Shown one piece after another: positions 4,433 to 43,305 of a DNA stretch of 44,005 bases. The notes beneath the pieces are model-generated. The model had not been told where the DNA came from and did no database searches. It saw only the letters and a list, made by a program, of their open reading frames with translations. Source of the DNA: a virus (Duplodnaviria > Heunggongvirae > Uroviricota > Caudoviricetes); IMG/VR virus record IMGVR_UViG_2579778573_000005; one strand, written 5' to 3'. Position 1 is the first letter of the stretch. Each line of letters starts with the position of its first letter. The translations under genes and the position numbers were made by a program.

Positions 4433-5935
4433 TTAGACTGTTTCTTTAAAAAGAGAGGCCAGAGCTTCAACTGTGTAATCATTATTAATGCGGTACATTA
4501 ACGTAATTGTTTGTGCCGGGGATTTCGGTCCAAAGTCAACATTAATATAAAGATTACCAGCGGCCAGACTTTCTTTTGTATTTAACTCTTCATCTAACCA
4601 CGCCCGTCCTCCGTTAATCGCGCCCTGCTCCTCTAATTTATGCAGATACGCGTTTATCGACTCTACAACGTCTGTTCCGAGGTGCAGGTCTATCGGGCGA
4701 TCAATAAAATCGGTCATCATTGCCCGGGCTATTGAATCCTCAATTACGTCAGCTGTCCGACGAACGCATTCAAAGGACCATTGGGGACTGAGGCTACACA
4801 GATAGTTACCCCAGTGTCTGAATCCATCATAGCGAATAATTGTGCTGACCTGGCTGGCGTTCAGCAGATTTGCTGTGCAGTTCGTTTCACCGATTATAAA
4901 ATCATCGACTTGTTCGAGTCCTGTAATTCCGTAGATATTTTGATTCGATTTGCTCCACCAAAACCCTTTTTCGTTATCAATTCTGGCTCGTAAACCAGCA
5001 GCGATAGCTGAATACGGACGAGATAAACCACTAACATCACTCGTAGAATAAACACGAGGGCGCAGAATTTCCATTCTGCCGCCGTACCTCTGACGACGAT
5101 TTACAACGTCAGCAGGCGTAGCGCCTCGCGGTGAATCGATATATCCAACGCCTCGTAATTTATTTGTCACCACTTCAAGTTGTTCTGCAATATAATCGTT
5201 AGCACTATAATCTGGAGCGATTAAAATTCTCGGCGTTACTTGATTTATTTGCGCAGACGTCAACAATGCGTTAATCCCGTTAACGACGTTCTGCCGCATT
5301 TTTGTTTCGTCGCTGTCCTCTTCGACGCGGACAACAACAATAATGGCATCCTCCTGATTTAGTATTTCAGATACAGCGGGAGGAAGGGTTCCAGACCCAC
5401 CGAGCAATCCAGCTTTTTTTTGACTGCCTGCAATTAACGTCGGAACATTATATTTGAACGATTCGTCTTTACCACCGGATAAATTTGTTGGGGGGAGCGC
5501 GAATACAGTCCCCGTTCCTGCGTGATCACCACCGAATGTGACGTTAATATATTCTCCAATCTGGAGTCCTTCTTTATACTGCTGGTTCTGATCGTACATT
5601 TTTGACGGGGTCATGGCACCGTCCGTGATCATTGTTAATTTTCTCGAACCGTCGGGCAGTGTGCTGTATCCTGGAGTTGCTACATTCCCGTTAATTCCCA
5701 AATCAACAATTTCAACAATCCAGTTGTTTCCGTCGGCCCCTGGCATGACAGTCGAAAACTCAACAAGATTGTCTGCGAGCTCTGATCCCCATAATAGTGA
5801 TGCACAAGTTGGGTAGCTGGAATCGGGAGCAGTACCAACAATCCCAATCACGGAAATATCTACTGTGTTGATCTCTTTTGTGCCGTCGTCGTATTCGAGC
5901 GTGCGAATACCGTGTAAAAAATTAGTTACGCTCAT
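4433..5935 (-). CDS. Contractile tail sheath protein (P2 FI-like)
   Basis: Track ORF 500 aa; N-terminal region resembles P2 FI sheath. Confidence 0.8.
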   Translation of the reverse strand: MSVTNFLHGIRTLEYDDGTKEINTVDISVIGIVGTAPDSSYPTCASLLWGSELADNLVEFSTVMPGADGNNWIVEIVDLGINGNVATPGYSTLPDGSRKLTMITDGAMTPSKMYDQNQQYKEGLQIGEYINVTFGGDHAGTGTVFALPPTNLSGGKDESFKYNVPTLIAGSQKKAGLLGGSGTLPPAVSEILNQEDAIIVVVRVEEDSDETKMRQNVVNGINALLTSAQINQVTPRILIAPDYSANDYIAEQLEVVTNKLRGVGYIDSPRGATPADVVNRRQRYGGRMEILRPRVYSTSDVSGLSRPYSAIAAGLRARIDNEKGFWWSKSNQNIYGITGLEQVDDFIIGETNCTANLLNASQVSTIIRYDGFRHWGNYLCSLSPQWSFECVRRTADVIEDSIARAMMTDFIDRPIDLHLGTDVVESINAYLHKLEEQGAINGGRAWLDEELNTKESLAAGNLYINVDFGPKSPAQTITLMYRINNDYTVEALASLFKETV

Positions 5936-32941: not shown

Positions 32942-33352
32942 TCACGCCCCTTTCTTTGCTATCGGAGTGATGGAACTCAGCAGCAGGCGGCAGCGACCAG
33001 GCGCGCCAATGCGCTGCCCGGTTATCTTGTCGTAAGTTTCATGCGGTGAGGCACACCAGGTTGTCGCTGTTTCGTGGAGTTTCACTTGCCGCTCACCATT
33101 TCTGCGAATCGCGATCCCGGTGTGCGTTTTGCCCTTACGTTTCACTGCTGGCGCTGCGGCTACGGATGCCTGACGGGCAGGCTTAGCAGGGGTTGAAAAA
33201 TTGCCTGCTTTAGGTCTTGGCACAAAAACCGCGCGAGTGCGCGCACGTGGCCCGACGTTCATATTCCACAAAATGACGTCGAGATAGTTTTTACCGTCGT
33301 CTATGTGTCCTTTGTCCGACGGGTACTCTAATTTGCCTGGAGTGGTGGTCAT
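32942..33352 (-). CDS. Hypothetical protein
   Basis: Track ORF 136 aa. Confidence 0.3.
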   Translation of the reverse strand: MTTTPGKLEYPSDKGHIDDGKNYLDVILWNMNVGPRARTRAVFVPRPKAGNFSTPAKPARQASVAAAPAVKRKGKTHTGIAIRRNGERQVKLHETATTWCASPHETYDKITGQRIGAPGRCRLLLSSITPIAKKGA

Positions 33353-33390
33353 TGGTCTTTCCTCGGTTATTTCACGCTGGTCAGGCGTGG

Positions 33391-35551: not shown

Positions 35552-35772
35552 ATGCCCAAAGCCTCTGAGAGAACGCGACAGCCAGCCTCATAGGCAGCGC
35601 CAGAGAGATTTTGCTCACGCAGTTTCGCTTTTTCTTCTTCGTACTTTTCCCATACAGAACGTGCAGCTGCGACGCGGCCATCGAATATGGGGCGGATCTC
35701 TGCAACATGTGCCGGGCGTCCATTCAGGTGCCAGCCGTTACGCCAGGTAATGCGGTCAATATGTCTTAACAT
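35548..35772 (-). CDS. Hypothetical small protein
   Basis: Track ORF 74 aa. Confidence 0.3.
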   Translation of the reverse strand: MLRHIDRITWRNGWHLNGRPAHVAEIRPIFDGRVAAARSVWEKYEEEKAKLREQNLSGAAYEAGCRVLSEALGI

Positions 35773-35811
35773 CGGTCTTTCCTCGGTATAAGTTAAACGC
35801 TGGTCAGGCGC

Positions 35812-36288
35812 TCATGCATGGTGGTCTTGCGCAGTGCGTATCACTGCTCCTCGCGTCGCTACCAGCGCCGCTATTGCTTCGTCAATTTCCTGAATAGTTA
35901 ACTCTGGCGCGAAGTGGAGATGTACAGCGTTAATCGCTTCCACCCCTTCTTTTGCCGCCAGCGTTGCCAGCAAAACGGGATCGCCCGGCGACTCCAGACG
36001 TGCCCGCCGTTCTGCGGGTAGCACGGCTTTCATCACACTGGCCAGCACCTGAGTTTTTCGGCGCGCCGCCGTTGTCTCGCCACGTAACCAGCGAAAGATT
36101 TTCTGCCGATTGTTGTTGATGGCTCTCCAGTCCACGTTGCCGTCCGCGTCCTCAAATTCATGTAGTCTCAACTCATCATTGCGTCCCTGACTGAACCAGG
36201 CCCGGCAGATTTCAATCGTGACGAGTTCCTGCCCTGCCCTTGCCGCCCAGGTCAAAATCTCTTTTTGTAATTCCTCTTGGTTTTCCAT
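35812..36288 (-). CDS. Putative CII-like lysogeny regulator
   Basis: Track ORF 158 aa immediately downstream of cro. Confidence 0.4.
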   Translation of the reverse strand: MENQEELQKEILTWAARAGQELVTIEICRAWFSQGRNDELRLHEFEDADGNVDWRAINNNRQKIFRWLRGETTAARRKTQVLASVMKAVLPAERRARLESPGDPVLLATLAAKEGVEAINAVHLHFAPELTIQEIDEAIAALVATRGAVIRTAQDHHA

Positions 36289-36346
36289 AGCGTCTCCTGT
36301 CGCTAAAAATTGATTACGCTTAATCAGATTTGGGGCTCACCAACAG

Positions 36347-36577
36347 TTAAGCTGCTTCCGTTTTAGGCAAGCTGTCATCTGGGTTTGGGTAAAGATCCGG
36401 TCTAAGATCATGAGGGGTCACGCGCCATTCAAGAGCTTCAGATGTGCGCAAAACCTCTTCACCGGGAACCCGTCCTTTGAACCAGAGGCTTACCGTTTGT
36501 GGTTTTTTCCCTAATCGCCGCCCTAACTCGGATTGACTCATTACGGAAAGAATTTTGTCTTGCAGTTGTTTATCCAT
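36347..36577 (-). CDS. cro: Cro-like HTH repressor
   Basis: 76 codons from ATG 36577 with AAGGAG RBS (track ORF extends to a TTG at 36613); HTH QSELGRRLGKKPQTVSLW; divergent from the repressor gene. Confidence 0.6.
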   Translation of the reverse strand: MDKQLQDKILSVMSQSELGRRLGKKPQTVSLWFKGRVPGEEVLRTSEALEWRVTPHDLRPDLYPNPDDSLPKTEAA

Positions 36578-36602
36578 ATGGACTCCTTGTGTCCGCGTCA
36601 TC

Positions 36603-36642
36603 ATTACAAACAATAACTGTAATTACAAATTATATTTGCAAT
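36603..36642. promoter_or_regulatory. Rightward operator region: two overlapping ATTACA-N9-TG(T/C)AAT sites plus pR -10
   Basis: ATTACAAACAATAACTGTAAT (36603-36623) and ATTACAAATTATATTTGCAAT (36622-36642); minus-strand TATAAT at 36629-36634. Confidence 0.5.
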
Positions 36643-36675
36643 GCTCCCTACAATTAAACCTTGTATCCTTACGGT

Positions 36676-37089
36676 ATGAACACAAAAACGAAAAACATGG
36701 CTTTTGCTAGCCGACTACAACGGATTCTAAAAGACTTAGGCTGGTCTCAATCTGAGTTAGCTCGCCATATTGGGGTTACGGCTCAATCAGTTCAGGCATG
36801 GTGTAATGGGGTAACTCCAAGAAAAGATAAATTAGACAAGCTAGCAAAAGTGACCGGATACCCTGTTCATTTTTTCTTCATGAATGAAGGGGAATATTTG
36901 GATGAATCCACACTACACCCGGGTAATTACAATCAAGAACTAACCCCGCAAGAACAGGCTCTACTGCAACTATTCAGAGGACTGCCTGAGAGCGAAAAAA
37001 ATAAATTAATCAATGAGCTAAAAGAAAAAAGAGAGCACTTCGATCTACTGCTAAAAGAACTACTTGAAGCCAAAAACCAGACAAAATAG
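36676..37089 (+). CDS. Prophage repressor (CI-like, HTH only, no S24 peptidase domain)
   Basis: Track ORF starts at TTG 36661; first ATG 36676; HTH WSQSELARHIGVTAQSVQAW. Confidence 0.65.
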   Translation: MNTKTKNMAFASRLQRILKDLGWSQSELARHIGVTAQSVQAWCNGVTPRKDKLDKLAKVTGYPVHFFFMNEGEYLDESTLHPGNYNQELTPQEQALLQLFRGLPESEKNKLINELKEKREHFDLLLKELLEAKNQTK

Positions 37090-37207
37090 TTCAGTTCAAA
37101 TTTCCAGGCCAGCCGCTGCTGGCATGCAACTTTCCCCTAACACAAAAACACCTTTACACAGTGAATATTTTTTTGCCCCTCACTACAAATTATTTTTTAA
37201 AAACACA

Positions 37208-37236
37208 TTGACCATTACAAATACAAATTGTAAAGT
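37208..37236 (+). promoter_or_regulatory. Candidate early-left promoter pL with embedded operator
   Basis: TTGACC-17-TAAAGT; the 17-bp spacer is an ATTACA-N9-TGTAAA site (37214-37234). Confidence 0.5.
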
Positions 37237-37804
37237 CACTTTCATCAACAACGCTTACCCAGCGGCAGTTGTTCAGAAACACGTTCTGACAGCCGGAAAG
37301 ACGGCACCAAATTTTGCGCGTCGGCGCCAACACGGTGACAGAGGGAAAGACTTCACCGGCATATGGCACATGTGTCGAAGCGGTCTGGATGGAAGCGGAG
37401 CCTTAACGCGTTGTCTCCATAGCAGGTAGCCGGAATGTGCAAGCCACAGCCAGGTATGAGCGATTGATTCACCATCAAGGCGATACGGTGTGACCACCAG
37501 GGAAGAGTCCTGGCTACAACACGAGAGCGCACTTCATCGACTCAACTTTGAGCTTTGTCGTTAAATTTTGAAATGGCGGAGTGCGCTCCCGGTTGTGGTG
37601 AACAGGTGTTTAACGGGAACTCCCTGCCCGTTACCCGGTTCGATTCCGGGCGCCCATCATCAATTTGCTGTGTTTAGTCTTTGCCCAGTCCGCACGATGG
37701 GCCATTTTTTCACACAGCCAGGTTTTATCGCTGTGCCTGAGTCCCCAACAGGAGAGGCCAAACCCGCAGCGTGACACCAGGGAAAGACCGGAGGAAGTAC
37801 CACG

Positions 37805-37871
37805 CCTGACCAGCGTTGACCATGAGCCTGACCAGCTCAAAACAGGAAAGACCAGCCCGGGCCTGACCAGC
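37805..37871 (+). repeat. Three direct copies of CCTGACCAGC within ~70 bp
   Basis: Copies at about 37805, 37827 and 37862 in the ORF-poor leader. Confidence 0.5.
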
Positions 37872-38099
37872 CCTGTACGGTCGTAATGGAAACATAACGA
37901 CGCCGGAAACGTAACCGGCACCCTTTAGATAGCAAAAGACCCGCACAAGGCGGGCCAGTTACCCCGAACGGCGACCAAACCATTCGGATTTATCACAAGT
38001 GACCAAACTTGTGATGAGGAAAGACCAACGACACTGACGCTATGGAAGCTGATCAATATTCGCTGATCGGCTCTGAGTATACATTACCAAGGAGTCGCT

Positions 38100-38420
38100 A
38101 TGGAAGCGCGCACCATCCCAGTAACACTCTTTATTCATTATGCAACTTCAACTTTCAGCCACGAAAAGCTGCTTGTTGCGACTGTTGATATGTCAAAAAA
38201 TTTTCCAGACAGGTACATCCTTCTGGAAAGCCGCGAAATTGAAATTACCGTTAACCAGCCCGAGCCAATCGACATCATCGGTTTACAGGTCGAGCAACTG
38301 CGTGAACAAAAACAGAAAACAGTCGCCGACGCCCAACAGCGTATTGCTGCTATCGATGACAAAATCCAGCAGTTACTTTGCATCGAATACACGCCAGATA
38401 CCGATGAGCTCCCCTACTAA
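38100..38420 (+). CDS. Hypothetical early protein
   Basis: Track ORF 106 aa; AGGAG RBS. Confidence 0.45.
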   Translation: MEARTIPVTLFIHYATSTFSHEKLLVATVDMSKNFPDRYILLESREIEITVNQPEPIDIIGLQVEQLREQKQKTVADAQQRIAAIDDKIQQLLCIEYTPDTDELPY

Positions 38421-38450
38421 AAACCACTGACCTGTAATGAGGAAAGACCA

Positions 38451-40667
38451 ATGACCATTTTTAACGGCTTGTTAGAAGCGAAAAAAGGCGCGCTCAAAAA
38501 CGGCGCGATCCCGGCGCTGGCCATCGCCATCGCCGCCCCTAACAAAAAAGTTGCCGAGAACATCATCATCGGCAAATTGTGGGAAGCCTACCCTGACCAC
38601 GGCGACAACTATTTCAAACCTAAAATCTGGGAAGATGCCCCGGGCCAACCGCGCCCAGGCGTCGGTGAGTTTGATGAGACGTTTGCCACAGAACACAGTT
38701 TTGATGGCGAAAAATGGGTAGTTAACACTCCTGTTGATTCAGATTGCAGTTCAGCAGATATCTCACAGGTTAGCGACCTGATGAAACTGCCGGCTCGTGA
38801 ACGATTCGCCGCCGTTCTGCTGTTCAGCCACGACGCCAACGAAGTCGACAGTGAATTGCTTGTGCAGACGCGTGAATACCTGGAGATGCTCGATAACAGT
38901 GATACTGACAGTGAGGATGAGGTTGACGCGTTTAACCGCATCGTTCTTGATGCCATGGTGGCGTGTAAGCCCATCGAGTACATGCATATTGCTGGATTGA
39001 ATAATCTGGTACATGCAATTTTGGCAAGTTGCGATACCCAGGAACAAAACCCGACCAGTTGGACTATCTCCAAATTTATAAAAAAATGGGTAGAGAATCC
39101 CGGTAAACGAGATGAAATGCTGCCGGAGGTAAAACCAGAAACAGCATCCGCACGTCCTTACAAACAGACTCACGCCACTCTGGATCGTGAAATTGCCTGC
39201 GCCCTGTTACCTGTTGCCCCGGAAAAAATCACCCCCAGCATCCTGAAAGCGGCAGACGAAATAATCAGTCAGGACAGGGAAGATTTTAAACGCTGGTCAA
39301 TGGCCTTGCGCACAACGGATCAGATCCTTGCCTATGACCGCGCATCAGTATTCGGTGTTATTCAGAGCGCCCCCGCAAAAGACACGTACCACTTCCCACA
39401 ATCCCTGCGCAGTCACATCGACAACTGGCTGCAAGCTAACGGGCAGCGTGATGCAAATGCTGTTGAAGAGAAGCCAAAGGAAGCAGCACCCAAGGATGAT
39501 GTAAAAGTCACCAACCACGGCGGCGGACGATTCTCAATTGATGGGATGATGTCAGAAACACCCTCAAATCAGGGCGAAAAAAGCGAAGCTGCAAATGCTG
39601 GAGAACGTAGTTTGCAGCAGTTGCGTGAGCAGTTTGTCACGCCTCGCCATGTGTATGACGTACCTGAAAATAACGCCGTATCACAGAGGGAACCTGCAGC
39701 TATTACCCTGGCAGAAGAGACTCCTCCACAAGAACAACTTAGCGAGCAGGTAAAGGATCTGGTGCAGAACGTTGACGCGCTGGTTGAGCGGATCCATGCC
39801 GAAGAGCACAAGCGGCAGAATGCAATCTCAGCTATCGAAACGGAGTTAAAGGACTCAGATGACACGGATAACCTGGCATTGTGGAAGAACGTATTCAAAA
39901 CCGATGAGCGCTTCACCAGTGCTTTCTCTCAGAATGGCGGCGGCACATCCATCAACGGCACTTATATAGCGATGAAAGCGACTCGCGAATTTGGGCCATT
40001 TGGTATTGGCTGGGGGGTAGAGGTGCTGGAGGAGCGCTTTGATAAAGGCGCACCAATAGTTCGCAAAAAACAGGTTGGTGAAAAAATAGAATGGGATCTG
40101 ATTCAAGACGGTGTTGGCGGGTACCTATGTGAAATGCACCACACCATGAAAGTGAGAGTCTGGTACATATTGAATGGGGTACGCGGTGAGTCCGAGGCTT
40201 ACGGATGCACACCTTATATCTACGACACTAAATACGGACCAACAAGCGACGGCGAAGCACCGAAGAAATCCTGGACGGATGCTGTTAAGAAAGCGCTATC
40301 CCCTCTCGGATTCAGCGCCGATATTTTCATGGGCCTGTACGACAATCCGGAATACCGCCAGAGGAATAAAGCTGAGTTTGATATCAAGAATGCCAGCGAG
40401 AATGCGGAAGATGCTACCCGTCTGCGTAAGGAACTGGATGAGAAGCTTATCAACGTTGCCAATACGCTGGCCGCCGCGGTAACCGCCAACGAAGTAAACA
40501 AGGTATTTGGCCTCATCGCCCGCGAAGTGGATGTACACAGGAAAGCAGCGGAAACCAAAGGCGATAAAGAATATTCATCGTATCTGGGATCACGTCTGCG
40601 CCGTATCACCGACATTAAAACTGAACGCCTCGCCGCCCTTACCGCTGCACAGGAGCAAACAGCATGA
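38451..40667 (+). CDS. Large early protein of unknown function
   Basis: Track ORF 738 aa; GAGGAAAGACCA RBS module; acidic N-terminal half; no family recognised by eye. Confidence 0.5.
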   Translation: MTIFNGLLEAKKGALKNGAIPALAIAIAAPNKKVAENIIIGKLWEAYPDHGDNYFKPKIWEDAPGQPRPGVGEFDETFATEHSFDGEKWVVNTPVDSDCSSADISQVSDLMKLPARERFAAVLLFSHDANEVDSELLVQTREYLEMLDNSDTDSEDEVDAFNRIVLDAMVACKPIEYMHIAGLNNLVHAILASCDTQEQNPTSWTISKFIKKWVENPGKRDEMLPEVKPETASARPYKQTHATLDREIACALLPVAPEKITPSILKAADEIISQDREDFKRWSMALRTTDQILAYDRASVFGVIQSAPAKDTYHFPQSLRSHIDNWLQANGQRDANAVEEKPKEAAPKDDVKVTNHGGGRFSIDGMMSETPSNQGEKSEAANAGERSLQQLREQFVTPRHVYDVPENNAVSQREPAAITLAEETPPQEQLSEQVKDLVQNVDALVERIHAEEHKRQNAISAIETELKDSDDTDNLALWKNVFKTDERFTSAFSQNGGGTSINGTYIAMKATREFGPFGIGWGVEVLEERFDKGAPIVRKKQVGEKIEWDLIQDGVGGYLCEMHHTMKVRVWYILNGVRGESEAYGCTPYIYDTKYGPTSDGEAPKKSWTDAVKKALSPLGFSADIFMGLYDNPEYRQRNKAEFDIKNASENAEDATRLRKELDEKLINVANTLAAAVTANEVNKVFGLIAREVDVHRKAAETKGDKEYSSYLGSRLRRITDIKTERLAALTAAQEQTA

Positions 40668-41233
40668 GCACTGCTATCGCTATTGCAAAAGAATATGCCA
40701 GTCTGATTGACCTGTTAGAAACCGCCGATGAACTGACGCCAGAGATGATCGCCGACACGCTTGAAGGCATGGAAGGAGAACTGGGAGACAAACTGGACGC
40801 CATGATGGTCATCTGCCGTAATTTACAGGGCAATGCCAATACCTGCGCTGAAGAAATGTCTCGCCTGGCAACCCGTAAGACGTCCTTTGAAGGCAAGGAA
40901 AAAGCAATTCGAAAGCATATGCTCACCTGCCTGCAAGCTGCTGGCCTGGATAAACTGAAAACCGCAAAAAACACATTTACTGATGCACAGGGGGCTATCC
41001 GGGTAATTATCGATAGCAAAGATAAGATCCCGGATGAGTATGAGGGCGTGTCACTTGTTGATGTAGAAACGGTTATTACACCAAACAAGCGAGCCATTAA
41101 AGAAGTGATTGAATCTGCGGAGGCGGTTGCCGCCGAAATACTGGCGCGTGGAGAAACACCACCAGCCGAGTTATTAAACCCGGTACCAGGCGCACATCTG
41201 GAACGCGGCGAACGGTCACTGAGGATACGCTAA
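40664..41233 (+). CDS. Gp157-like protein (siphovirus Gp157 family resemblance)
   Basis: Track ORF 189 aa; N-terminal pattern EYASLIDLLE...ADTLEGMEGE. Confidence 0.4.
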   Translation: MSTAIAIAKEYASLIDLLETADELTPEMIADTLEGMEGELGDKLDAMMVICRNLQGNANTCAEEMSRLATRKTSFEGKEKAIRKHMLTCLQAAGLDKLKTAKNTFTDAQGAIRVIIDSKDKIPDEYEGVSLVDVETVITPNKRAIKEVIESAEAVAAEILARGETPPAELLNPVPGAHLERGERSLRIR

Positions 41234-41415
41234 TGCTTAAACTCACATTAAAGCGTGGTGACGCGGTTCACCTGGTACTTGCCGATGGTACCAATGGCAT
41301 TATTGAAGCACGGAGCCGCTGCGAACTTGGGCTACACCTGCCAGAAAACATTAAGGTCACTCGGGAGAAATCGGCATTCACCCCACAAGAACTGATTACG
41401 CCTAATCAGAAATAA
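41233..41415 (+). CDS. CsrA/RsmA-like small protein
   Basis: Track ORF 60 aa, translationally coupled (TAATG); ungapped alignment to E. coli CsrA matches L2, L4, T5, G9, G33, P37, V42, R44, E45. Confidence 0.4.
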   Translation: MLKLTLKRGDAVHLVLADGTNGIIEARSRCELGLHLPENIKVTREKSAFTPQELITPNQK

Positions 41416-41464: not shown

Positions 41465-41689
41465 ATGCTGCGATGGCAACCGGGAGCAACTCTGCTCTCC
41501 GCATTTGATATCAAAATTGGTCGACTGTCGGCCAGCGTCAGGAAACAGACTTTGACCGAGTCTGATATTGCCCGTGCCTGCCAGAAGGCAGATGACGCAA
41601 TAAGCTACATAATGAGGAAAGACCATGAAAAGCGATCACGACATAATCACCAGAGAAGAAATGGTCGAGCTGACGGGAAGCCCACTTAA
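41465..41689 (+). CDS. Hypothetical small protein
   Basis: Track ORF 41435-41689; ATG 41465 with GGAGGA RBS; 3' end overlaps next gene. Confidence 0.3.
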   Translation: MLRWQPGATLLSAFDIKIGRLSASVRKQTLTESDIARACQKADDAISYIMRKDHEKRSRHNHQRRNGRADGKPT

Positions 41690-43003: not shown

Positions 43004-43090
43004 TGGTACCCGGAGCGGGACTTGAACCCGCACAGCGCGAACGCCGAGGGATTTTAAATCCCTTGTGTCTACCGATTCCACCATCCGGGC
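43004..43090 (-). tRNA. leuZ: tRNA-Leu (anticodon UAA)
   Basis: 87-nt reverse complement reads GCCCGGATGGTGGAATCGGTAGACACAAGGGATTTAAAATCCC...CCA with long variable arm. Confidence 0.9.
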
Positions 43091-43102
43091 TCGGGAAAAA
43101 AG

Positions 43103-43176
43103 TGGAGGCGCGTTCCGGAGTCGAACCGGACTAGACGGATTTGCAATCCGCTACATAACCGCTTTGTTAACGCGCC
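43103..43176 (-). tRNA. cysT: tRNA-Cys (anticodon GCA)
   Basis: 74-nt reverse complement reads GGCGCGTTAACAAAGCGG...GATTGCAAATC...TCCA. Confidence 0.9.
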
Positions 43177-43229
43177 AAATTCTTCAGGCCTTTCAGCCAG
43201 ACATCCGCTGACGCCGATGCCTTTTAAAC

Positions 43230-43305
<76 letters not shown>

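Follow-up and report, generated by a model that had tools for sequence, protein, structure and literature searches.

What does a lambdoid prophage of Escherichia coli transcribe in the 0.86 kb between its repressor gene and its first early-left gene? The question arises in IMG/VR record IMGVR_UViG_2579778573_000005, a 44,005-nt stretch of DNA that we refer to as the window, where a sequence-only reading of the region downstream of the early-left promoter pL had found a leader poor in open reading frames (ORFs) and rich in GGA-containing repeats. That reading proposed either a structured regulatory RNA or a protein-binding array, possibly for a CsrA-like protein of the phage's own. Comparison with related phages indicates that the leader is a modular noncoding RNA under pL rather than a decayed gene. 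It carries a large structured RNA domain, here called R1, and, after it, degenerate copies of a ribosome-binding cassette; three further results went beyond the earlier description, namely a tRNA-like segment, an RprA-like small RNA with its terminator, and a wide distribution of R1.

The prophage is integrated beside the leuZ-cysT-glyW tRNAs and pgsA of E. coli. Many genomes of sequence type 131 (ST131) type share an identical copy of the 1.36-kb segment that surrounds the leader, and 476 of 5426 complete E. coli genomes contain this segment. The immunity region holds a cro-like gene (36347-36577, - strand) and a helix-turn-helix (HTH) repressor gene (36697-37089, + strand). The operator pattern TTACAAA-N5-WYTGYAA occurs exactly three times in the window (0.19 expected), once in pL and twice between cro and cI, and since the promoter thus encloses one of only three operator copies, pL appears to be repressor-controlled. 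The parts of the transcript up to the leader terminator are the following.

37208-37236, + strand: pL promoter, TTGACC-17-TAAAGT, the sole sigma-70-like site in a promoter scan of 36000-39000
37215-37233, + strand: operator TTACAAATACAAATTGTAA, inside pL, with the pattern given above
37243-37356, + strand: 5' leader, aligned with six related phages and kept from the transcription start on, despite different promoters and operators
37247-37273, + strand: hairpin AACAAC/GUUGUU within the 5' leader
37292-37305, + strand: hairpin GCC[GGAAAGAC]GGC; relatives have GCCC[GGAAAGAC]GGGC, the stem being longer on both sides
37344, + strand: second GGAAAGAC of the 5' leader, like the first presented as a hairpin loop; a 22-nt direct repeat, D4, was also noted in this leader
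37357-37595, + strand: R1 domain, about 240 nt, seven helices and a pseudoknot, supported by covariation
37357-37529, + strand: R1 helices H1-H6 and pseudoknot CACC/GGUG, supported by covariation
37518-37533 with 37580-37595, + strand: R1 closing helix H7, long-range, enclosing a variable insert
37596-37664, + strand: tRNA-like remnant with an anticodon-arm-like hairpin AACGGG/CCCGUU and a T-arm look-alike CCCGG-UUCGAUU-CCGGG; minimum free energy fold z = -2.1
37665-37712, + strand: module like the 3' end of RprA, with seed UUGCUGUGUUUAGUCUUUGCCC, terminator hairpin and U6

Several observations speak for a noncoding leader, as had been proposed from the sequence. The PGAP/NCBI annotation of an identical copy contains no feature between the repressor gene and the gene for a 106-amino-acid (aa) protein (38100), and the longest leader ORFs (73 aa on the + strand, 96 aa on the - strand) lie within the expectation from shuffled leaders (median 87 aa, 95th percentile 137 aa). 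Relatives with about 72% identity over the entire leader are Stenotrophomonas phage BUCT708 and five IMG/VR contigs; in the comparison with one of these, 22 of 25 indels were not multiples of three, and no leader ORF was conserved as a protein among the relatives compared. More distant relatives of the operon, whose 106-aa protein is 52-59% identical, have a shorter leader that is just as ORF-poor. The ORF lengths, the frame-breaking indels and the lack of conserved ORFs led us to reject a protein-coding or frameshifted gene.

The strongly structured part of the leader is R1, for which we derived a structure by hand and tested it on 41 non-redundant representatives (alignment A3). The model has six helices, namely H1, the base of H2, P3, H4, H6 and a possible, never-varying loop-linker pairing GCAC/GUGC, together with a pseudoknot between the H4 loop CACC and a downstream GGUG and the long-range helix H7. 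In H1-H6 and the pseudoknot, 97.9% of the cells were paired, as opposed to at most 49.5% when the partners were slid by 1-3 columns, and 12 of the 32 pairs had changed on both sides (77 cells), values that none of 500 shuffles reached. The pseudoknot itself changes from C-G to A-U in three sequences. Likewise, H7 (CAAC..GAGAGCA with UGCUCUC..GUUG) was paired in 93.3% of cells; both sides had changed in 8 of its 16 pairs, and none of 500 shuffles did as well. Because invariant or common U-G pairs would become C-A on the opposite strand, we assign the RNA to the + strand, which is the sense of pL. Near-invariant sequence is also found in long unpaired stretches (AGCGGUC, GGUAGCCGGAAUGUGCAAGCC, UGGCGAU, GGUGUGAC and the loop GGAAGAG). 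A kissing interaction of the H2 loop UUCC with the H6 loop GGAA was considered as well and rejected, as its variants do not covary. The suggestion that the leader holds a structured RNA is thus borne out, and the RNA belongs to no family that we could recognise in Rfam 15: at permissive thresholds, the window and six other R1-carrying loci had no match over R1 at E <= 1, and the scan yielded only tRNAs, a weak RprA match and, elsewhere, C4 and isrK. Nor did we find R1 described in the literature, in which exact searches with conserved blocks matched only unrelated C. elegans papers and searches on antiterminator RNAs of phages, on prophage small RNAs like RprA and on recent motif discovery produced no match.

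R1 is common. With a covariance model of R1, the window has a single match (139 bits, E = 4e-43). The model also matches 23 genome loci; 22 belong to Enterobacterales genera, and the other is on a short contig that carries the label of a Bacillota metagenome-assembled genome. That contig (L181, 1753 bp) has the best R1 score among the genome loci, 185 bits, and is probably a binning contaminant from an enterobacterial phage. By blastn with one variant as the query, the family is present in 1833 of 5426 complete E. coli genomes, with up to four copies per genome, and more than 120 IMG/VR contigs, a lower bound, contain the invariant 19-mer GGTAGCCGGAATGTGCAAG. The segment at about 37357-37528 is shared, again by blastn, with epsilon15-like podoviruses (SPN1S, Tyrion, phiV10), with P1, P7, D6, SJ46 and mEp390, and with Klebsiella phages; 231 plasmid records, mostly P1-like, carry R1 as well. 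None of the 40 E. coli records listed has an annotation at the R1 match, and R1 is also unannotated in the phage records that we examined (epsilon15-like, P1).

The surroundings of R1 follow a few patterns. Among 55 non-redundant contexts, the nearest upstream ORF has an HTH_3 domain in 24, of which 22 also have Peptidase_S24 (CI/LexA type), and all but one of the S24-sized upstream ORFs are on the strand of R1; this is the arrangement in the window. In five of the 55, all from epsilon15-like phages, the closest ORF upstream is instead a portal gene, read from the other strand. The genes downstream are diverse and include SieB, excisionase, DnaB, Tad2-like and HNH genes, among others. In about 30 loci, a tRNA-Arg(UCU) begins right after H7, its acceptor strand overlapping the conserved GUUGUGG, and is followed by one or two terminator-like sites, usually two. 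P1-like phages instead have tRNA-Ile(CAU) directly upstream, and in P1 R1 lies between trnI and ban in the C1-controlled ban operon, 2.4 kb into the operon and directly before ban. Lastly, relatives of the window's own operon that have no R1 keep the RprA-like terminator and the same downstream genes.

Many family members, such as L014 (about 5000-5130), L012 and L054, carry a second conserved domain downstream of R1, in the place where others carry tRNA-Arg. In this domain a hairpin whose loop is RGGCUGA, together with a T-arm-like GCCGGAGAUCRGCACCGG, is enclosed by the pairing of GUUGUGGUGA and UCACCACAAC; Rfam gave no match for the domain. About 2 kb upstream of R1, L014 also has matches to the C4 antisense RNA and to isrK above the Rfam gathering scores (2538-2726, - strand), so that prophages of this kind carry several noncoding RNA genes near the immunity region.

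In the window, the place of the tRNA-Arg(UCU) found in the roughly 30 related loci is taken by the tRNA-like remnant. Neither ARAGORN nor the Rfam tRNA model called a tRNA at 37596-37664, where only the T-arm look-alike is present, and the only tRNAs that the two methods called in the window are the three host tRNAs at 43004-43305. Alignment of the segment to tRNA-Arg was uninformative.

The module that follows resembles the 3' end of RprA. The Rfam RprA model (RF00034) matches 37602-37712 with 37.4 bits, below the gathering score of 70, and the strength of this match lies entirely in the last 47 or so model positions; a relative, L001, reaches 50.2 bits, also below the gathering score. The 5' two-thirds of the model align poorly, with mismatched pairs, onto the tRNA-like segment, and the RprA 5' domain (the first two hairpins and the region pairing with rpoS and narP) has no counterpart. 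What the module does share with RprA is the conserved seed GCUGUGUGUAGUCUUUGCC and an intrinsic terminator (terminator-like site 37688-37702 and T-run), in a layout of UUGCUGUGU(G/U)UAGUCUU(U/G)GCC, terminator hairpin and U-run with a near-identical seed. Thus, only the 3' third of RprA is matched, the 5' part being replaced by the tRNA-like segment, and the module differs from RprA in being phage-borne, under pL and the repressor, and fused downstream of a large structured RNA. RprA itself is found both full-length and as a processed form of its last 47 nt, and this short form has regulatory activity of its own (PMC9262595). Of 144 distinct loci, 24 have the seed CUGUGU(G/U)UAGUCUU and a terminator downstream of R1; across these 24, the seed is constant and the terminator stems vary with compensating changes, a pattern typical of Hfq-type small RNAs. 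About 20 of 33 relatives without R1 contain the seed as well.

Past the terminator, the leader is dominated by repeats. GGAAAGAC has 11 exact copies in the window, eight times the 1.37 expected and a number reached by none of 100 shuffles; eight are on the + strand (37295, 37344, 37781, 37845, 38018, 38441, 41616, 42107) and three on the - strand (35782, 33362, 27730). A second motif, CCTGACCAGC, has five exact copies, three on the + strand (37805, 37827, 37862) and two on the - strand (35799-35808, 33376-33385). The sequence-only reading had placed the three + strand copies of CCTGACCAGC exactly; of the GGAAAGAC copies that it listed, the one put near 37305 is in fact at 37295, and the others were placed to within 1-3 nt. 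Each copy is in the sense of the operon in which it lies, + in the early-left and - in the early-right operon.

On sequence grounds, GGAAAGAC(C) and CCTGACCAGC are the two halves of one cassette: a hairpin with a CUGACCA loop, 10-16 nt, and then GAGGAAAGACC(N)ATG, CCTGACCAGC corresponding to the hairpin loop and its 3' flank. The window has five hairpins with this loop as compared with 0.1 expected, and their stems are different yet complementary (ACGC/GCGU, UGAGC/GCUCA, GGGC/GCCC, UGAGCGC/GCGUUUA, CACGC/GCGUG). As had been reported, GAGGAAAGACC(A)ATG forms the start region of the 738-codon gene (38451) and of the DUF4224 gene (41625), and we found it at two early-right genes as well (35772 and 33352, - strand). 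The full unit of hairpin and box is present at the latter two, and the box without a clean hairpin at 38451 and 41625. The gene starts of relatives carry the same units, for instance with the stem GGCGC/GCGCC. The enrichment of GGAAAGAC (about 10 copies per 9-14 kb) is found only in this phage group and is absent from other carriers of R1 or of the RprA-like seed.

The GGA repeats thus appear to be mainly a stereotyped ribosome-binding cassette, and the roughly 390 nt past the terminator (37713-38099) to be degenerate, geneless copies of this intercistronic cassette of the phage's own; it is possible that the repeats serve as a protein-binding array. In one of these copies (38016-38030), ACG stands at 38028 where relatives carry ATG and an ORF of about 37 codons, annotated in BUCT708 as a coding sequence of 37 aa, and a 26-nt repeat, D2, is common to this vestigial start and to the real start region at 38430-38455. 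Related phages have kept the repeats, and none of these phages encodes a normal protein in their place. The elements of this part and the corresponding copies elsewhere are as follows.

38430-38453, + strand: cassette GAGGAAAGACCAATG at the start of the 738-aa gene, a putatively functional copy
41614-41627 (+ strand), 35770-35811 (- strand) and 33350-33389 (- strand): the other putatively functional cassette copies
37802-37816, 37823-37839 and 37859-37873, + strand: three geneless cassette hairpins with loop CUGACCA; relatives have the loop variants AUGACCA and CUAACCA
37779-37789 and 37845-37853, + strand: (G)GGAAAGACC boxes interleaved with the geneless hairpins
37902-37919, + strand: hairpin GCCGG-AAACGUAA-CCGGC; relatives have GCCGG-GAAAGA-CCGGC
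37938-37956, - strand: G+C-rich hairpin and T-run, resembling a terminator when read on the minus strand but not on the plus; relatives show covariation of the stem
37993-38030, + strand: vestigial gene start with a hairpin (loop GACCAAA), GAGGAAAGACCA, then ACG
38063-38084, + strand: 22-nt block CTGATCGGCTCTGAGTATACAT, identical in otherwise about 72%-identical relatives and directly before the ribosome-binding site of the 106-aa gene

In one subgroup of relatives, the hairpin corresponding to 37938-37956 is flanked by both A- and T-runs and so would be bidirectional there; a promoter scan found no minus-strand promoter near it in the window. The block CTGATCGGCTCTGAGTATACAT holds GATC and a TATACA box and lies inside a small ORF (38042-38188) that overlaps the start of the 106-aa gene. 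CRISPR (clustered regularly interspaced short palindromic repeats)-annotated features of NZ_CP019392.1 and NZ_ABACVG020000001.1 match the leader at about 37778-37821 and about 37999-38031 with 95-100% identity, which suggests spacers acquired against the repeat-cassette region of the phage. We also observed that AGUCUUU of the RprA-like seed (37665-37685) is complementary to AAAGACU/AAAGAC of the GGAAAGAC boxes, over 6-7 bp here and, in relatives, over 5 bp. Via the seed, the cassette ribosome-binding sites could be touched by the small RNA or by host RprA. We rejected this pairing, since it covers only 5-7 bp, is weaker with the UCUUGG of relatives, and the enrichment does not track the seed outside the phage group; the complementarity is probably coincidental.

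The closest published parallel to the cassette is the start-associated sequence (SAS) and extended SAS of cluster K mycobacteriophages (PMC3203893), by analogy and not by homology, as the sequences are unrelated. The SAS is an asymmetric repeat with a Shine-Dalgarno sequence that lies a few nucleotides before the ATG of non-structural genes, in one orientation and in one phage group; about half of its copies are preceded by an inverted repeat, and a bound host or phage factor has been proposed (PMC3203893). The cassette shares the main features of this type, with GAGGAAAGACC(N)ATG at four gene starts, in the sense of the operon and specific to a phage group. It differs in sequence and host, in that the upstream repeat is an RNA hairpin with covarying stems and an invariant loop, and in that geneless copies are stacked in the pL leader.

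Putting these parts together, we consider it somewhat better than an even bet that the region serves the repressor-controlled early-left operon as a noncoding leader built of RNA modules, whose products would be processed and act in trans. When the repressor is lost, pL would transcribe the leader, and most or a large share of the transcripts would end at the terminator at 37712. The terminated RNA of about 470 nt would contain R1 and the RprA-like small RNA and would probably be processed into two products, one a stable structured RNA and the other a small RNA of the Hfq type, separated as RNase P would do for the tRNA-linked copies. The RprA-like small RNA would then act in trans on host mRNAs that are RprA targets, as a mimic of RprA, and read-through transcripts would express the 106-aa, exonuclease-like, Gp157, DUF4224 and integrase genes. 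The cassette-bearing genes would probably be co-regulated at translation initiation by an RNA-binding factor, for which the leader cassettes, as presumed remains of recombination between cassettes, may provide decoy sites.

For R1, our best guess is a trans-acting, stable early RNA that engages a conserved host component. We favour action in trans because R1 is in many phages a self-contained unit that ends in terminators and in some cases runs antisense to structural genes, and because relatives of the same operon do without it. A precedent is offered by DicF in the dicB operon of Qin and by the ban operon of P1, which has a dicF-like region and tRNAs; in these operons, small RNAs and tRNAs are co-transcribed before early genes from a repressor-controlled promoter, and the ban operon is itself one of the places where R1 is found; however, R1 is not DicF, being much larger, pseudoknotted and unannotated in P1. 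A bolder proposal, which we put forward as speculative and rather improbable, is that R1 represents a new class of RNA acting on a conserved host machine, a mobile cassette of lambdoid, P1-like and epsilon15-like phages that is here fused to an RprA mimic, such that induction would reprogram the RprA regulon and also license early-left transcription. Such an RNA could, for example, confer termination resistance on the polymerase in N-less lambdoid phages, be a ribozyme, or be a decoy for a host RNA-processing or defence factor.

Some points weigh against the trans-acting leader. The transcription start, the 3' ends and the processing are all inferred. The single-sequence fold of the R1 core was no more stable than shuffles (z = -0.6 on the + strand, 0.0 on the - strand) and is uninformative; support for the structure comes from covariation. 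The seed in the window, GUGUUUAG, differs from that of RprA, GUGUGUAG, at one position (G to U). Finally, the promoter scan of 36000-39000 found no second promoter after the leader terminator, and the early-left genes consequently need read-through, which fits antitermination at least equally well.

Antitermination is indeed the alternative that survives best. R1 would in that case be a cis-acting processive antiterminator like put of phage HK022. It would fold while the pL transcript is still nascent and bind RNA polymerase, enabling it to read through the RprA-like terminator and escape Rho, and would replace N; we regard this as possible but unlikely. R1 opens the early-left operon right behind a cI-type repressor gene (22-24 of 55 contexts), the position at which lambda has nutL and N. 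As the sequence-only reading had it, the early-left products include no N-like protein: in Pfam, the 106-aa, 738-aa and 60-aa products have no family and the others are Gp157 and DUF4224, and the PHROGs labels are unknown or exonuclease. An intrinsic terminator separates pL from the first gene, with no second promoter found, and a 0.86-kb leader needs protection, as Rho quickly terminates long untranslated RNA (PMC7665894). The extreme conservation of the unpaired R1 segments, moreover, suggests a conserved host partner. In HK022, too, putL is directly downstream of pL, so that R1 and put are alike as structured RNAs directly after pL and ahead of terminators in a lambdoid phage without N (PMC9378689).

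The comparison with put goes no further than this. R1 has no sequence or model similarity to putL or putR; R1 has no block in common with the pL and pR regions of HK022, in which putL and putR were identified by their positions, and the R1 model gave no match in the HK022 loci L127 and L128. Whereas put is about 70 nt long with two stems and lies downstream of each early promoter, R1 has about 240 nt, seven helices and a pseudoknot, and occurs once in the 44-kb window, with no copy in the early-right operon. R1 is also found as a stand-alone unit with tRNA and terminators: in the roughly 30 loci with R1, tRNA and, usually, two terminators, the epsilon15-like ones included, it is antisense to the terminase and portal genes, where read-through would be harmful. 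In P1 it lies far inside the ban operon (2.4 kb), just before ban, and R1-less relatives of the window's operon retain both the RprA-like terminator and the genes beyond it.

The small invariant-loop hairpins of both early operons likewise resemble the nut sites of lambda and P22, and their CUGACCA loop recalls the P22 boxB loop GACAA. Unlike nut sites, however, they have no N-like protein to go with them, number five or more, and lie upstream of ribosome-binding sites rather than once per operon. In a search of the leader for boxA (CGCUCUUA / UGCUCUUUAACAA), the best matches were 6/8 and 8/13, none of them beside the invariant-loop hairpins. UGCUCUUUAACAA is the boxA of ribosomal operons, and it is closely resembled by CAGUGCUCUUUCC, the sequence of the H7 3' strand in L022, L058, L069, L174 and other R1 members; the window copy, AGUGCGCUCCC, is unlike boxA. 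For the other members, a reading of this strand as boxA is contradicted by its covarying base pairing.

A second alternative, which we find doubtful, retains the idea of CsrA: the leader would be a GGA-rich sponge or loading array for a CsrA-type protein of the host or the phage that would also control the GAGGAAAGACC ribosome-binding sites. GGA is found in or at the edge of loops in GCC[GGAAAGAC]GGC (37292-37305), in the H6 loop GGAAGAG and in the CCGG[GAAAGA]CCGG of relatives, the motif is conserved and 8-fold enriched, and it overlaps the Shine-Dalgarno sequence of four genes. CsrA represses translation by overlapping Shine-Dalgarno binding. For the CsrA-like protein of the phage that the sequence-only reading had in mind, we assumed the 60-aa ORF at 41233-41415, which begins with a superficially CsrA-like MLKLTLKRGD, belongs to phrog_2482, a small family confined to Enterobacteriaceae with 16 invariant residues, and co-occurs with the cassette-rich phage group. 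An AlphaFold model of the protein, with a predicted local distance difference test score of 76, has four beta strands in a pattern that is compatible with CsrA but not diagnostic. The 60-aa protein gave no Pfam hit, no BLASTP alignment to E. coli CsrA and an hhalign probability for CsrA of 3.5%; CsrA was absent from its PDB sequence hits; its model had no Foldseek hit at E <= 0.001, with CsrA not in the top 50; and tblastn of CsrA against the entire window returned nothing. With these six independent negative tests, a phage-encoded CsrA-like protein is not supported. The 60-aa protein, which is not known to have relatives outside its family, is a candidate RNA-binding factor, and binding of host CsrA to the GGA motifs is possible.

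The leader itself also differs from a sponge in some respects. CsrB/CsrC-type sponges are similar in being untranslated RNAs with repeated GGA, some of it in hairpin loops. A few of the GGA motifs seen here are in loops (37292-37305, the H6 loop and the hairpins of relatives), and the others are in ribosome-binding sites. The density of sites in the leader is low, at about 5-8 in 860 nt, and most copies of the motif double as ribosome-binding sites. The invariant AAGACC of the cassette and the separate CUGACCA loop, moreover, are extra bases outside the CsrA consensus, and a Shine-Dalgarno sequence of the AGGA type contains GGA in any case.

That the leader is instead a decayed or frameshifted protein gene, with repeats that are chance or functionless remnants, is most improbable: one cassette is a dead gene start (ATG to ACG at 38028, with the 37-codon ORF kept in relatives) and the tandem cassettes do resemble leftovers of gene deletions between repeated junctions, but no relative encodes a normal-sized protein, the region is ORF-poor in the 72%-identical as well as in the more distant, shorter-leader relatives, indels break the frames, the RNA helices covary, and the motif counts are far above chance.

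Beyond the leader, the 738-aa early-left protein (38451-40667), which has no Pfam family, has PHROG matches labelled exonuclease, and a Gp157-family gene comes next; together the two genes probably form a recombination module.

R1 has a complexity like that of riboswitches or ribozymes and stands unannotated in about a third of complete E. coli genomes, as well as in P1 and in epsilon15-like Salmonella phages. Provided that no description of it exists, it would be among the commonest uncharacterised structured RNAs in the best-studied bacterium. Its usual site, as the first thing transcribed from pL in N-less lambdoid phages, makes testable how polymerase passes early terminators and long untranslated leaders in these phages. 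The hairpin and GAGGAAAGACC cassette would be an enterobacterial counterpart of the mycobacteriophage start-associated sequences, in a genetically tractable host. Lastly, the phage-borne RprA end suggests that prophage induction, or a leaky pL, may feed the Rcs- and RpoS-linked RprA network of the host, in a prophage that is widespread in the pandemic ST131 lineage.

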